Of a DNA stretch of 64,000 nt, positions 1,026 through 3,364 are shown in pieces. The DNA lies in the IMG/VR virus record IMGVR_UViG_3300043446_000435, positions 21,441-85,440 of that record. The stretch is one strand, 5' to 3'. Under the pieces are notes generated by a model that was not told the origin of the DNA, did no database searches, and was given only the letters and a program-made list of their open reading frames with translations. How positions within the stretch are numbered: position 1 is the stretch's first letter; each line of letters opens with the position of its first letter. The stretch is from a virus. The translations under genes were made by a program, and so were the position numbers.

Positions 1026-1054
1026 TTGACAACCATGTACCAACGTGGTATGAT
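1026..1054 (+). promoter_or_regulatory. sigma70-type promoter for the main tRNA/ncRNA operon
   Basis: TTGACA-17 nt-TATGAT. Confidence 0.85.
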
Positions 1055-1070
1055 ACTAAATATGCTGATT

Positions 1071-1117
1071 CGCTGTTTGACAATCTAATCTGGTAGGAAC
1101 AATCGAAAGGTTGTTTC
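1071..1117 (+). promoter_or_regulatory. boxA-like sequence followed by a GNRA hairpin
   Basis: CGCTGTTTGACA resembles rrn/lambda boxA (TGCTCTTTAACA); hairpin GGAACAATC-GAAA-GGTTGTTTC follows. Confidence 0.45.
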
Positions 1118-1152
1118 TTCATGGAGGCATCTAGGTGCTTCTTTGTAGAAAC

Positions 1153-1350
1153 AACTGATTAGGTGTGGTGTTATGGAAAATCTCAGTGTTCCTGGGTAAG
1201 CGCACAGTCTATGGGTCCTCTGTCTGCAGGCACGGCCAATGCTGAGTTGTAACTGAAATAGGAGTCATGACCTGAAATAAGGTTACAGATTAAAGCGAAC
1301 GGTATGGCGGTCTATCCATATCCATAACATAACATCACTCCTAATCAGTT
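1153..1350 (+). ncRNA. unknown structured RNA (~200 nt, multibranch)
   Basis: Closing stem AACTGATTAGG..GTGGTGTTATG / CATAACATCAC..CCTAATCAGTT; internal stems CTCAGTGTT/AATGCTGAG, TGTAAC/GTTACA, TATGG/CCATA; no ORF. Confidence 0.7.
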
Positions 1351-1351
1351 A

Positions 1352-1428
1352 CGGAGATTAGCGCAGTCTGGTAGCGCATCTGGTTTGGGACCAGAGGGTC
1401 GCAAGTTCGAATCTTGCATCTCCGACCA
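1352..1428 (+). tRNA. tRNA-Pro(TGG)
   Basis: Cloverleaf, TT-TGG-GA, CCA. Confidence 0.95.
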
Positions 1429-1429
1429 A

Positions 1430-1509
1430 TTAGGCGCAGGGGCGTAGGTATTGAAAGAGATACATAGAGCTCTGCTGAAAAGAAGATCGACGGACGTATC
1501 TTCTCCTAA
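1430..1509 (+). ncRNA. unknown small structured RNA (~80 nt)
   Basis: TTAGG/CCTAA closing stem, GCAGGG/CTCTGC with inner GTAT-TGAAAGAG-ATAC, and AGAAGAT/ATCTTCT hairpin. Confidence 0.5.
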
Positions 1510-1517
1510 ACATATTT

Positions 1518-1592
1518 GCGGGGTTAGCTCAGCGGAAGAGCGGCTGCTTTACACGCAGCGGGTCGGGAGTTCGATCCTCTCACCCCGCACCA
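1518..1592 (+). tRNA. tRNA-Val(TAC)
   Basis: Cloverleaf, TT-TAC-AC, CCA. Confidence 0.95.
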
Positions 1593-1594
1593 GT

Positions 1595-1696
1595 TGCCAG
1601 CAGCAGATTCCGGTAGTCTGCTGTGTCGTTGGTCTAATAGGATACGATTTCCTGCACGTGCGGGAAGACGTGGGTTCGAATCCCACACGACAGGCA
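1595..1696 (+). ncRNA. tRNA-like RNA with no anticodon and no CCA, with a hairpin inserted in the acceptor stem
   Basis: Perfect T-arm GTGGG-TTCGAAT-CCCAC, D-like region, TGTCGT/ACGACA stem, anticodon loop replaced by GCACGTGC. Confidence 0.65.
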
Positions 1697-1706
1697 TATC
1701 ATTCAT

Positions 1707-1782
1707 GGACTGTTAGCTCAGTTGGTAGAGCGAGTGACTCTTAATCACCAGGTCGGGGGTTCGAATCCCTCACAGTCTACCA
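1707..1782 (+). tRNA. tRNA-Lys(CTT)
   Basis: Cloverleaf, CT-CTT-AA, CCA. Confidence 0.95.
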
Positions 1783-1798
1783 TATATAGAAAGTTCAT

Positions 1799-1874
1799 TT
1801 CGCGATAGCTCAGATGGTAGAGCAGCTGACTGTTAATCAGCGGGTCCCTGGTTCGAGCCCAGGTCGCGGAGCCA
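1799..1874 (+). tRNA. tRNA-Asn(GTT)
   Basis: Cloverleaf, CT-GTT-AA, GCCA. Confidence 0.95.
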
Positions 1875-1881
1875 ATTCGTG

Positions 1882-2038
1882 CGCCGTATGAAACAAGAAT
1901 AAAGAAAGCATGGTTAGTCATTGCTGGAGATTATTCGGGAAGACTTACGCCCTCTGGTGTTGATAGACTGTCAACATTCGCAGGTCTGAGGGGAGCTGTG
2001 ACCGAGCAGCAGGGAAGGGTAGGACATACCCATCGGCG
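1882..2038 (+). ncRNA. unknown structured RNA (~160 nt)
   Basis: CGCCGTATG/CATCGGCG closing stem with hairpins GAATAA/TTATTC, CCCTC/GAGGG, TGTTGAT/GTCAACA, GCTG/CAGC, GGGTA/TACCC. Confidence 0.6.
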
Positions 2039-2044
2039 AAATTT

Positions 2045-2128
2045 GGAGGATGCGGTTGCTGGGCAACAACTGGTCTTGAAAACCGGCGCACCGAAAGGTT
2101 GATGGTTCGATTCCTTCATCCTCCGCCA
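2045..2128 (+). tRNA. tRNA-Ser(TGA)
   Basis: GGAGGAT/ATCCTCC, CT-TGA-AA, variable hairpin ACC-GAAA-GGT, GCCA. Confidence 0.9.
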
Positions 2129-2133
2129 TTCTT

Positions 2134-2209
2134 GGGGGTATAGCTCAGTTGGGAGAGCGTCTGCTTTGCAAGCAGAATGTCGGCGGTTCGATTCCGTCTA
2201 CCTCCACCA
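2134..2209 (+). tRNA. tRNA-Ala(TGC)
   Basis: Cloverleaf, G3:U70, TT-TGC-AA, CCA. Confidence 0.95.
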
Positions 2210-2214
2210 AGACG

Positions 2215-2331
2215 GTTGGACGCGGTAAATAGTCCCGCGAGGAGCCACGGTTAGCTCCTCATCTAACACATGGAGCTTGCCTAGAGGGGAAACGTGGAGC
2301 TGTAAGATCCACTTCGAAGGCGTTTCCCCTC
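2215..2331 (+). ncRNA. two small three-way-junction RNA modules of unknown function
   Basis: GTTGGA/TCTAAC enclosing CGCGG/CCGCG and AGGAGC/GCTCCT; GAGGGGAAACG/CGTTTCCCCTC enclosing TGGA/TCCA and a UUCG-containing segment. Confidence 0.55.
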
Positions 2332-2341
2332 ATTCAGTTTC

Positions 2342-2417
2342 GCCGTCATAGCTCAGCAGGTAGAGCAGTTGATTTGTAATCATCAGGTCCCGAGTTCGAT
2401 TCTTGGTGGCGGCACCA
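2342..2417 (+). tRNA. tRNA-Thr(TGT)
   Basis: Cloverleaf, TT-TGT-AA, CCA. Confidence 0.95.
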
Positions 2418-2423
2418 TTTTAT

Positions 2424-2498
2424 GTCGGGGTGGAGCAGTAGTAGCTCGCTTGGCTCATAACCAAGAGGTCGGAGGTGCGATTCCTTCCCCCGCAACCA
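2424..2498 (+). tRNA. tRNA-Met(CAT), initiator-like
   Basis: CGGGG-TGGAGCAG...GTAGCTCG and 3' CCCCGCAACCA are typical of fMet; T-loop TGCGATT. Confidence 0.85.
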
Positions 2499-2501
2499 AT
2501 T

Positions 2502-2657
2502 CACAGGAGATGGGAACCTGTGCGTCACCAATCGTGTAATCGCGCGCTGCTGCCACGATTGGATATAGTGACTAGCCACTGAGGTCTAGAAGAGCAGCCG
2601 TCTTTTCCCGATACAACCTGTCACGCGAAAAGGTGACGCTGGATGGCAGTAACCAGC
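2502..2657 (+). ncRNA. unknown structured RNA with two potential pseudoknots
   Basis: Hairpins CACAGG/CCTGTG, GTCAC-CAATCGTG/CACGATTG-GTGAC, GTCAC/GTGAC, GCTGG/CCAGC; loop complementarities GCTGCT/AGCAGC and TGGGAA/TTCCCG. Confidence 0.6.
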
Positions 2658-2665
2658 GGATTTCG

Positions 2666-2721
2666 ATGTGTTATAAAACGGCTAATAGTAAGATGACACA
2701 GTAGCCATTTCATAACACATT
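2666..2721 (+). ncRNA. long imperfect hairpin before tRNA-Asp
   Basis: ATGTGTTAT/ATAACACAT and GGCTA/TAGCC stems. Confidence 0.45.
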
Positions 2722-2797
2722 GGCTTCGTAGCTCAGTTGGGAGAGCGCCGGCCTGTCACGCCGGAGGTCGCGGGATCGAGACCCGTCGAAGTCGCCA
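2722..2797 (+). tRNA. tRNA-Asp(GTC)
   Basis: Cloverleaf, CT-GTC-AC, T-loop ATCGAGA, GCCA. Confidence 0.93.
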
Positions 2798-2798
2798 T

Positions 2799-2874
2799 TG
2801 GGGATTAGTTCAGTTGGTAGAACGCCAGACTCTGAATCTGGATGTCCGAGGTTCGAGTCCTTGATCCCCAGCCA
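2799..2874 (+). tRNA. tRNA-Gln(CTG)
   Basis: U1-A72, CT-CTG-AA, GCCA. Confidence 0.95.
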
Positions 2875-2876
2875 AT

Positions 2877-2951
2877 GTTCCCTGAGCAAGACGGTAATGC
2901 GCGGGACTGCAAATCCTTGAGAATCCAGTTCGACTCTGGAAGGGAACTCCA
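2877..2951 (+). tRNA. tRNA-Cys(GCA)
   Basis: CT-GCA-AA, U73, CCA. Confidence 0.92.
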
Positions 2952-2956
2952 AGTTT

Positions 2957-3033
2957 GGTCGGGTAGCTCAACCGAATAGAGCATCGGTCTACGAAACCGA
3001 AGGTTGAAGGTTTGACTCCTTCCCCGATCGCCA
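2957..3033 (+). tRNA. tRNA-Arg(ACG)
   Basis: CT-ACG-AA, T-loop TTTGACT, GCCA. Confidence 0.92.
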
Positions 3034-3039
3034 TATTAT

Positions 3040-3114
3040 GCGGAGGTAGCTCAGTGGTAGAGCTTCTCGTTGCCAACGAGACGGTCGTGGGTTCGAATCC
3101 CATTCTCCGCTCCA
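3040..3114 (+). tRNA. tRNA-Gly(GCC)
   Basis: TT-GCC-AA, U73, CCA. Confidence 0.95.
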
Positions 3115-3115
3115 T

Positions 3116-3192
3116 GCCCTATTAGCCCAACTGGTAGAGGTGTCGGTCTTAGAAACCGAAGGTTGTAAGTTCGAATCTTACATAGGGCACCA
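3116..3192 (+). tRNA. tRNA-Leu(TAG), short variable loop
   Basis: GCCCTAT/ATAGGGC, CT-TAG-AA, only a 5 nt variable region, ACCA. Confidence 0.88.
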
Positions 3193-3197
3193 GTTTC

Positions 3198-3273
3198 GTC
3201 GGAATAGCTCAGATGGTAGAGCAGTGGTCTCATACGCCGCGCGTCGCAAGTTCGATCCTTGCTTCCGACACCA
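3198..3273 (+). tRNA. tRNA-Met(CAT), elongator or Ile2
   Basis: Cloverleaf, CT-CAT-AC, CCA. Confidence 0.9.
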
Positions 3274-3276
3274 ATA

Positions 3277-3347
3277 TGCTACAGTCGGTGTTGTTGGGAA
3301 ACACAGATCGACAAGACTAGGACGCCGTTCGAATCGGAGCTGTAGCA
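3277..3347 (+). ncRNA. tRNA-like RNA or pseudo-tRNA lacking a proper anticodon arm and CCA
   Basis: TGCTACAG/CTGTAGCA acceptor-like stem, GTGTT/AACAC D-like stem, CCG-TTCGAAT-CGG T-arm. Confidence 0.6.
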
Positions 3348-3364
3348 CTTCATAAATAAGATCA

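Follow-up and report, generated by a model that had tools for sequence, protein, structure and literature searches.

Putative Structured Non-Coding RNAs Conserved among the Transfer RNA Genes of an Uncultivated Freshwater T4-like Phage

Introduction

What occupies the long spacers of a phage transfer RNA (tRNA) operon in which many neighbouring genes lie only a few nucleotides (nt) apart? The question is raised by a 64,000-nt stretch of viral DNA, hereafter the window, which comprises bases 21441–85440 of the 85,440-base-pair (bp) virus contig IMGVR_UViG_3300043446_000435 and carries a tRNA operon near its start. The window derives from an uncultivated T4-like phage of fresh water, an assignment based on the T4-type baseplate wedge proteins among its large open reading frames (ORFs; phrog_219, E 1e-158, and phrog_17744, E 6e-80) and on the freshwater, reservoir, and estuary metagenomes in which near-identical DNA occurs. 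Related IMG/VR contigs are often 150–175 kb in length. Stable non-tRNA RNAs in the tRNA cluster of T4 have been known for decades, and an initial annotation of the window, made from its sequence alone, had proposed that the long spacers encode a series of structured RNAs that tRNA processing would release.

Comparison with related loci suggests that these "spacers" are genes in their own right. At least seven conserved, structured non-coding RNAs are predicted (M0, M1, M2, M3, M4a, M5a, and M7), and it seems fairly probable that they are co-transcribed with the tRNAs, released by processing, and active in trans. The comparisons directly support their predicted secondary structures and pseudoknots, through covariation, together with their conservation, their array context, and their absence from Rfam.

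Two Size Classes of Spacer

Starting from position 777, the gaps between consecutive tRNAs called by ARAGORN measure 5, 5, 336, 89, 114, 16, 170, 5, 132, 5, 223, 1, 82 (a gap that contains a tRNA-Cys), 6, 1, and 5 nt. Neighbouring tRNAs in the window are therefore separated either by 1–16 nt or by 82–336 nt, in keeping with the initial estimate that ordinary spacers here are under about 20 nt. The same pattern held in 1300 same-strand tRNA–tRNA gaps from all collected loci, a tally that includes duplicated contigs: 633 gaps were of at most 20 nt, 17 of 21–44 nt, 361 of 45–350 nt, and 289 of more than 350 nt.

These loci were gathered by means of an anchor, ORF 3365–4012 (BPL_N/GATase-like), which is embedded in the tRNA region and with which 80 IMG/VR and 80 metagenome loci were fetched; further loci came from scanning for exact words taken from conserved parts of individual modules. 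L-numbers (L006, L081, and so on) label the related loci that were compared with the window. When the gap sequences of the collected loci were grouped, at least 18 clusters held three or more distinct members, although these numbers are rough, since single-linkage clustering chains families through uncalled tRNAs. An extra closed, structured module containing GUGAAUAGGGAA was also seen between tRNA-Ala and M4a in L164 (13497–13600) and L254 (14607–14705), and is absent from the window. Because of these clusters and this extra module, the module repertoire of the relatives is larger than the window shows.

GenBank offered little by comparison. When the whole region was compared with GenBank phages by blastn, all matches were to tRNAs, and none of 2459 records covered 80% or more; M0 and M5a searched alone against 50,697 GenBank phage records gave no match, nor did a tblastn search of GenBank phages with ORF 5722–7557. 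A literature search, outside of which lay the supplementary tables of PMC10690425, found no description of these RNAs.

Folding Scores and Rfam Searches

Fold z-scores, computed for single sequences against dinucleotide shuffles, were −4.58 for 1147–1351, −2.15 for 1430–1517, −3.03 for 1593–1706, −2.40 for 1875–2044, −2.95 for 2210–2341, −0.93 for 2499–2660 (where the nested fold is blind to pseudoknots), −4.41 for 2658–2721, and −1.86 for 3274–3364. Several of these are weak taken alone, and a range of −4.6 to −0.9 is suggestive, not decisive. The decisive support is comparative. The test of covariation that the initial annotation had called for was run, and compensatory changes were found among the homologues of seven elements, M0, M1, M2, M3, M4a, M5a, and M7. 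Its count of at least seven structured RNAs between the tRNAs is thus sustained by seven covarying modules, and all eight of the intervals that it named have relatives in uncultivated phages.

Rfam 15 (4227 models) was searched with the whole window at gathering thresholds and with positions 700–4700 at E ≤ 10. Across the window at gathering thresholds, only tRNA and transfer-messenger RNA (tmRNA) matches were obtained. At E ≤ 10 in 700–4700, the only spacer matches of other than tRNA type were at chance level, to mir-556 (19.9 bits; gathering score 84) and TCL6_1 (15.2 bits; gathering score 60), while YrlA (RF02553) scored at most 31.6 bits (gathering score 69), always on ordinary tRNAs. Neither GOLLD (RF02032) nor ROOL (RF03087) was matched at the gathering score or at E ≤ 10, and at E ≤ 10 there was no match to the hepatitis delta virus (HDV) family, to any other Rfam ribozyme, or to 6S RNA. 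A 6S RNA, a rod with a central bubble, was rejected on this result and because the consensus folds are multibranched in both M0 and M3. No module belongs to an Rfam family, M2 with its weak tRNA score excepted, and the earlier failure to place these RNAs in any known family is confirmed.

M0 and Its Leader

M0 (1147–1351, plus strand) is predicted to be a multibranch RNA of ~200 nt closed by a 21-bp helix. Across 25 distinct sequences with a mean column identity of 89%, RNAalifold yields 55 consensus pairs, 23 of them with compensatory changes, the 21-bp closing helix included. In 21 of 24 relatives a tRNA begins 0–2 nt beyond its 3′ end. M0 heads the array, the upstream tRNA being absent from the locus in 19 of the 24. 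A 15-mer scan of IMG/VR retrieved 70 stretches, and nhmmer over 258 loci gave 34 M0 matches, about 28 of them among those 70; the remaining 15-mer stretches were set aside as chance matches.

Within M0, at ~1223–1230, is an 8-nt self-complementary segment in which 97 of 97 cells are paired. It occurs as CCUGCAGG (14 sequences), CUAGCUAG (5), CCAGCUGG (3), and UCUGCAGG (3), that is, in three Watson–Crick versions and one, UCUGCAGG, with a U-G pair. Counting U-G, the 8-mer is self-complementary in all 25 sequences and two of its four pairs covary, though few independent events may underlie this. Eight contiguous self-complementary bases cannot make a hairpin, and pairing with a second M0 copy is therefore the simplest RNA-level reading; the covariation of the palindrome hints at self-association of M0.

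Upstream, the second part of the tRNA operon appears to be headed by a sigma-70-type promoter, TTGACA-17-TATGAT (1026–1054, plus strand), which matches 11 of 12 consensus positions and has a TG before its −10 element. It aligns with TTGACA...TAnnAT in L006 and L008. A TTGAC(A/T)-17-TAnnnT promoter is found 120–260 nt upstream of M0 in most relatives, and matches at 10 or more of the 12 positions occur within 500 nt upstream in 18 of 25 loci, a count made with no shuffle control.

Between promoter and M0 lies a structured leader, D1 (1055–1146, plus strand), which was absent from the intervals first listed. It is predicted to form two hairpins (z-score −2.12) and has 17 nhmmer matches in relatives. 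In D1, GUUGUUUCU (at about 1115) can pair with AGAAACAAC (1147–1155), directly 5′ of M0. This outer pairing surrounds a longer insert in L006 and L008 and, by eye, an M2-like tRNA-like element in L208 and L218.

The Pseudoknotted Module M5a

M5a (2498–2660, plus strand) is an RNA of ~160 nt for which a covariance model, R1, describes helices P1–P5 and three pseudoknots. In the predicted fold, the loops of three hairpins are each paired with a downstream segment, the segments following one another in reverse order: GGGA (2512–2515) with UCCC (2606–2609) in pseudoknot 1 (PK1), GCUGCU (2546–2551) with AGCAGC (2593–2598) in PK2, and CUAG (2572–2575) with CUAG (2586–2589) in PK3. Pairing energies with own versus foreign partners, calculated with the exclusion of one sequence whose anchors failed, were −9.0 versus −4.3 kcal/mol for PK2, −6.9 versus −4.7 for PK1, and −5.5 versus −4.1 for PK3. 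The nested helices have 85.5% of cells paired, against 71.0% in shuffles; 15 of their 26 pairs change on both sides, with 0–1 of 500 shuffles as good (29 sequences), and they score 0.426 for covariation, compared with 0.160 in shuffles. On the model-guided alignment P3 and P4 score poorly, at 51.7% and 76.4% paired, respectively, which, judged by eye, stems from the misalignment of two length variants.

A conserved 19-mer from M5a was found in 33 IMG/VR stretches, all in co-directional tRNA arrays, and R1 matched full-length in the 32 of 32 that were searched; in total, R1 gave 39 matches, 29 of them distinct, at 118–148 bits. Each of the 40 rows examined sits in a tRNA array of the same orientation. 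In 32 of them no more than 10 nt separate the upstream tRNA from the start of M5a, which in most copies comes 0–3 nt after CCA; in 22 of them the end of M5a and the next tRNA are 10–12 nt apart. Depending on the locus, M5a precedes tRNAs for Asp, Tyr, Cys, Ser, or Leu. A conserved AUU stands before P1 even where no tRNA is adjacent. When 185,579 bacterial and archaeal genomes were scanned, the 19-mer occurred seven times, covering model positions 139–158 only and with no tRNAs nearby; with the rest of the RNA missing, these stretches were rejected as chance matches. As a separate observation, L081, the closest relative, carries at 8902–9064, after tRNA-Ser/His, a second M5a-like copy that is divergent (56.7 bits on R1) and has another P5 loop; the window lacks a counterpart.

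Modules M1, M3, and M4a

M3 (1880–2040, plus strand; z-score −2.40) is an RNA of ~160 nt known from seven distinct sequences, in which 26 of 43 pairs show compensatory changes around the invariant core GAGGGNGCUGUNNCCGAGCAGCAGGSAAG. By eye, a loop CCGA may form a pseudoknot with a UCGG after the last hairpin, and in L006 AAGGG and CCCUU would take their place. M3 stands just upstream of tRNA-Ser(UGA) in the window, L169, L174, L004, L006, and L084, and, judging from flanking sequence, in L192. A 16-mer scan returned 45 stretches, of which those in L167, L169, L173, L174, L192, and L260 have conserved flanks by eye; the remainder share the word alone and were not retained. In the M3 copy of L173 (~2540–2560), a hairpin CUGG-AUGGUAA-CCAG resembles P5 of M5a, CUGG-AUGGCAGUAA-CCAG (window 2638–2657), and M3 copies generally have an (A/G)UGGU(U/A) loop, so that M3 and P5 may share a loop motif. 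Two further ideas suggested by the alignments alone, that loops containing UGG in M3 and M5a bind the CCA ends of tRNAs and that a GAAA-type loop of M5a docks in a receptor, are not put forward as claims.

M1 (1430–1512, plus strand; z-score −2.15) is predicted to be a three-way-junction RNA made up of a closing stem and two hairpins. It is represented by three distinct sequences only, those of the window, L172 (identical to L184), and L254, and a 23-mer scan of IMG/VR added no loci to these three. Of its 28 pairs, seven show compensatory changes, and both hairpins and the closing stem stay paired throughout.

The interval 2215–2331, first taken to be one structure, proved to be composite. Its conserved part is M4a (2212–2262, plus strand), a 50-nt module with two short predicted helices and the conserved loop CACGGUUA, known from 13 distinct sequences. 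Its cells are paired at 91.7%, against 87.7% in shuffles, and 5 of 12 pairs change on both sides, a result matched by 0 of 500 shuffles; RNAalifold returns six pairs only. Before M4a there is always a tRNA 3′ end, and after it comes either tRNA-Thr or, in 5 of the 13 sequences, a Shine–Dalgarno sequence and ATG leading into an ORF of ~200 amino acids (aa). The remainder of the interval is a GC-rich hairpin with a 12-bp stem, M4b (2283–2331, plus strand), which is part of the single-sequence fold of this interval and was found in the window only, no homologue being detected at E ≤ 1 among 304 related loci. M4b is unsupported as a conserved RNA.

The interval 2666–2721, which had likewise been proposed as a structured RNA, stands as a conserved sequence that folds well but shows no covariation. 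This element, M5b (plus strand; z-score −4.41), is a long imperfect hairpin that ends at tRNA-Asp, with arms nearly identical in L081, L162, L167, and L192. No compensatory changes were found among the relatives, and the window copy has two A-C mismatches. In L164, a copy of M5b occupies another site, the place that M0 has in the window.

The tRNA-like Modules M2 and M7

Two of the intervals first described as structured, 1595–1696 and 3277–3347, do covary, and the description has to be corrected in that both are tRNA-like. M2 (1599–1697, plus strand) consists of a 5′ hairpin (1599–1622) stacked on a tRNA-like cloverleaf (1623–1694) with a 5-bp acceptor stem, a D arm that is Glu-like by eye, a T arm, and a non-canonical "anticodon" arm of which both length and loop vary between relatives. 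The cloverleaf scores 33.3 bits on the Rfam tRNA model RF00005 (threshold 29), a match seen only in the sensitive search and not in the gathering-mode search with default filters. Five distinct sequences give 20 pairs, seven with compensatory changes.

M7 (3277–3350, plus strand; 13 distinct sequences) is tRNA-sized and is predicted to have a 7-bp acceptor stem, a 5-bp D stem, and a T arm. In place of the anticodon arm it would have a mini-arm of 4 bp and a 5-nt loop, set within an 18-nt core that hardly varies. Nine of 20 pairs show compensatory changes across 11 sequences; covariation is seen in the acceptor stem and the D stem, the T arm does not vary, and over the 13 sequences the non-helical core is nearly invariant while the stems vary. 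No match to RF00005 was obtained even at E ≤ 10.

Both modules resemble tRNA (RF00005) in keeping the acceptor stem, the D arm, and a UUCGA-bearing T arm, and differ from it in having no 7-nt anticodon loop and no encoded CCA. ARAGORN calls neither. A role as decoding tRNAs was rejected, as there is no 5-bp anticodon stem with a 7-nt loop, no CCA is encoded, and ARAGORN does not accept them. M2 and M7 are clearly tRNA-derived.

Mosaicism of the Arrays

In all, ARAGORN finds 21 tRNAs between 777 and 4602 on the plus strand, 17 of them ending by 3273. Those among the modules are tRNA-Pro (UGG; 1352–1428; also Rfam, 68.3 bits), tRNA-Val (UAC; 1518–1592), tRNA-Lys (CUU; 1707–1782), tRNA-Asn (GUU; 1799–1874), tRNA-Ser (UGA; 2045–2128), tRNA-Ala (UGC; 2134–2209), tRNA-Thr (UGU; 2342–2417), tRNA-Met (CAU; 2423–2498), tRNA-Asp (GUC; 2722–2797), tRNA-Gln (CUG; 2799–2874), and, within 2957–3273, tRNA-Arg (ACG), tRNA-Gly (GCC), tRNA-Leu (UAG), and a further tRNA-Met (CAU). 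Rfam adds a plus-strand tRNA-Cys (GCA) at 2877–2948 (44.6 bits) that ARAGORN does not call in the window; it extends to 2951 with its encoded CCA, has 14 homologous loci at 76–100% identity, and is called as Cys by ARAGORN in relatives. CCA is read directly after the tRNA genes of the 777–3273 cluster, tRNA-Cys included.

The arrays are mosaic, with both the order of the tRNAs and the presence of each long spacer varying even among close relatives. In L081, for example, the anchor protein is 99% identical and the DNA 94% identical over window positions 2349–4509, but the locus does not align upstream of 2349 and is without M0–M4. Ala–Thr gaps range from 60 to 162 nt in close relatives. Each module is present once in the 85-kb contig. 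Among distinct phage sequences, a given module is common to between 3 and ~30, and the modules are shuffled among arrays in a cassette-like fashion.

A Proposed Route from Operon to Free RNAs

In most copies the modules lie 0–12 nt from tRNA ends, and they run in the same direction as the tRNAs, downstream of a strong sigma-70-type promoter; given this co-directionality and the abutting tRNA ends, co-transcription followed by processing release is the likeliest mechanism. Host sigma-70 RNA polymerase would start at 1026–1054, and the leader, M0, and the array of tRNAs and modules would form one precursor. In bacterial tRNA precursors, RNase P cuts each 5′ end and trimming follows the encoded CCA. 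Were host enzymes to excise the phage tRNAs in this way, by RNase P at the 5′ ends and endo- or exonucleolytic trimming after the CCA, the intervening compact RNAs would automatically be freed as discrete, presumably stable small RNAs. The geometry fits the release by tRNA processing that was first suggested (M0 in 21 of 24 relatives; M5a in 32 of 40 rows at its start and 22 of 40 at its end), and stable products of such release are putative.

The freed RNAs would be made in step with the phage tRNAs and could then act in trans; the action on translation or on anti-phage tRNA nucleases that the initial annotation raised is conjectural. M0, and probably others, may fold into higher-order structures, and M0 might pair with a second copy of itself through the 8-nt palindrome, as GOLLD, ROOL, and OLE do. 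M2 and M7 would be tRNA-derived mimics in which the acceptor/T-arm shape is retained and decoding is impossible. If these are decoys, they might draw off defence nucleases, or enzymes of the host, whose recognition depends on the body of the tRNA. It is tempting to go further and to see here a kit of seven or more novel RNA classes, with M5a as a new ribozyme or tRNA-end-binding RNA, M0 as a self-assembler of the GOLLD/ROOL kind, and M2 and M7 as decoys, all released by tRNA processing; as a whole, this bolder proposal is speculative and rather doubtful.

Folds of the intricacy of M5a or M0 normally belong to ribozymes, to ligand sensors, or to components of RNA–protein machines. That intricacy makes the two good candidates for new RNA biochemistry and for phage–host interactions around tRNA and translation. 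Since the constructs are short and the promoter is of the sigma-70 type, direct testing is feasible without the host.

Alternative Explanations

Several results weigh against the proposal that the modules are trans-acting RNAs, or limit what they can carry. The M0 palindrome may reflect only two or three substitution events; M1 rests on three sequences and M2 on five; a putative third helix of M4a shows no covariation; and PK3 of M5a is weak, its own and foreign partners barely differing. Homologues were gathered by exact-word patterns, which makes invariant stretches such as P5 of M5a partly an artefact of ascertainment, and the shuffle tests overstate independence, the sequences being related. 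Close relatives have or lack modules beside the same tRNAs, and no module is essential to the array. The region is matched by 24 public sequencing runs, all as Logan contigs, of which X19, X20, X1, and X2 were aligned; one 246-nt X19 contig spans 1863–2108 without differences from the window. Two RNA-labelled runs are assembled contigs, uninformative on expression, ends, or strand; one of the two is "probably DNA", and they mostly caught tRNAs of other organisms.

The modules could instead be cis-acting, guiding or protecting the maturation of neighbouring tRNAs (as entry sites for RNase III, E, or P, folding insulators, or 3′-end protectors) and then being degraded with no function in trans. 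This would account for the fixed distances at which they abut tRNA ends, as with the 10–12 nt between M5a and the next tRNA in 22 of 40 rows, for the constant position of M4a after a tRNA 3′ end, for the RNase III-like closing helix of M0, and for an element such as M5b, which is a plain long hairpin. It is nevertheless unlikely, as the same tRNAs do without modules in close relatives (the Ala–Thr gaps of 60–162 nt, and M5b in place of M0 in L164), a single module serves several tRNAs (M5a before Asp, Tyr, Cys, Ser, and Leu), loops and junctions are conserved beyond the helices, and multi-pseudoknot folds go far beyond the needs of a cleavage site. A more specific cis activity, self-cleavage, would have M5a, and perhaps others, cut at its own 5′ edge and thereby generate the 3′ terminus of the tRNA before it, in the manner of the HDV-like theta ribozymes of gut phages. 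Most M5a copies do start 0–3 nt after the upstream CCA, the AUU before P1 is conserved even with no tRNA adjacent, nested pseudoknots are typical of small ribozymes, and PMC10879173 documents theta ribozymes beside phage tRNAs. Still, a ribozyme of this kind is decidedly improbable: bacterial tRNAs with an encoded CCA need none, 8 of the 40 M5a rows are not directly behind a tRNA, no Rfam ribozyme model matched at E ≤ 10, and the M5a order, with a hairpin first, three loop-to-downstream pairings, and two 3′ hairpins, is unlike that of HDV.

That the spacers are tRNA genes in decay, or what insertions of mobile DNA (homing-endonuclease or miniature inverted-repeat transposable element-like) have left behind, with no selection on the RNA, would be consistent with the tRNA ancestry of M2 and M7, the gain and loss of modules in mosaic arrays, the different sites of M5b, the restriction of M4b to the window, and the presence of segB inside the T4 tRNA cluster. 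As a general explanation it is very improbable, and it fits the seven covarying modules poorly, for their compensatory substitutions keep pairing intact, including G-U pairs that are meaningful only in RNA, and the non-helical core of M7 is nearly invariant in 13 sequences while the stems vary; for M4b and M5b it is possible. That the spacers encode small proteins is hardly credible, even though ORFs of 30–97 codons overlap some of them (e.g., 1451–1744, 2475–2582, and 1998–2102). These ORFs cross tRNA genes and most begin with TTG or GTG, 1123–1450 contains no ORF as long as 30 aa on either strand, substitutions in helices are compensatory and not codon-periodic, and loops tolerate insertions and deletions that are not multiples of three. 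Release of structured RNAs that act in trans thus continues to be the preferred reading.

Neighbouring Genes and Other Features

The anchor ORF 3365–4012 (plus strand) matches Pfam BPL_N (E 1.3e-9) and represents a very widespread phage gene, with more than 599 IMG/VR relatives at 52–81% identity. Just downstream of the tRNA region is a gene for a DctP-type solute-binding protein (4638–5657, plus strand; E 3e-30), followed further on by one for a 486-aa radical SAM protein (9531–10991, plus strand; E 2e-18). A permuted, two-piece tmRNA of alphaproteobacterial type is located at 34074–34470 (plus strand; Rfam tmRNA_permuted, 109.5 bits; alpha_tmRNA, 104.4 bits), with the tag ANDNAPVAMALAA according to ARAGORN and with a tRNA-Gln(UUG) at 34674–34749 after it. 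The tmRNA type may hint at an alphaproteobacterial host.

The arrays of relatives also contain unusual tRNAs. A "SeC" tRNA (anticodon tca) is called in L006, L008, and L167, a "Pyl" tRNA (anticodon cta) in L004, L006, L007, L008, L090, and L172, and "???" tRNAs with odd anticodon loops in L085 and L087. It is possible that these tRNAs with stop-codon anticodons (UCA, CUA) or odd loops are suppressor or recoding tRNAs. None of these unusual kinds is called in this window.

Comparison with Known Systems

The nearest precedent is T4 itself, where rnaC and rnaD are co-directional with the tRNA genes at the end of the cluster and the homing-endonuclease gene segB lies within it. According to PMC3014915 and PMC9697503, T4 RNAC and RNAD lie in the tRNA region and their roles are unknown. 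The precedent, which had been invoked from the start, is apt as an analogy: in both cases, by genomic context, non-tRNA RNAs share a strand with the tRNA cluster of a T4-type phage, those here being putatively stable, and RNAC ends in a T-arm-like CCGGG-UUCGAAU-CCCGG, tRNA-like as are M2 and M7. As homology it does not extend to M5a, the only module covered by the T4 model comparison; with filters off, R1 found no match at rnaC or rnaD in NC_000866 68000–75000, its best score being 3.5 bits elsewhere, and M5a was accordingly rejected as an RNAC or RNAD homologue. T4 differs as well in having two such RNAs at the end of its cluster, whereas at least seven families are interleaved through the array here. 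RNAC itself (L305, 2909–3047) has a fold z-score of −4.57 and, by its sequence, looks tRNA-derived; RNAD, at −0.83, is no better than shuffles.

ROOL RNAs are several hundred nt long. PMC12286853 describes GOLLD and ROOL as RNAs of phages or prophages that have no known function and often lie close to tRNA islands, which bears out their citation as neighbours of phage tRNAs in the initial annotation; many GOLLD RNAs exceed 800 nt, and both form RNA-only homo-oligomers via kissing loops that were first detected as covariation. The likeness lies in the tRNA-island neighbourhood and in the covarying palindrome of M0, a signal of the same kind as that described there. The modules differ in measuring 50–200 nt and in matching neither family in sequence, and oligomerisation of M0 is putative.

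The HDV fold is a nested double pseudoknot, P1-P1.1-P2-P3-P4, with cleavage at its 5′ edge. In PMC10879173, HDV-like theta ribozymes are reported next to phage tRNAs, and M5a resembles them as a predicted pseudoknotted RNA adjoining phage tRNA genes. It differs from the HDV fold in its helix order and in having no Rfam ribozyme match.

A comparative-genomics catalogue of IMG/VR reports 8,495 csRNAs, some of them tRNA-like, in the text of PMC10690425. It draws on the same viral collection from which these modules come and may contain some of them; RNAs interleaved in tRNA arrays are not described in that text.

Taken against these systems, the modules are new RNA families of a general kind already known, that of non-tRNA RNAs in phage tRNA clusters. 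What sets the operon apart is that several unrelated folds with covariation support occur within 2.3 kb, and the phenomenon known from T4 is much richer in uncultivated T4-like phages.

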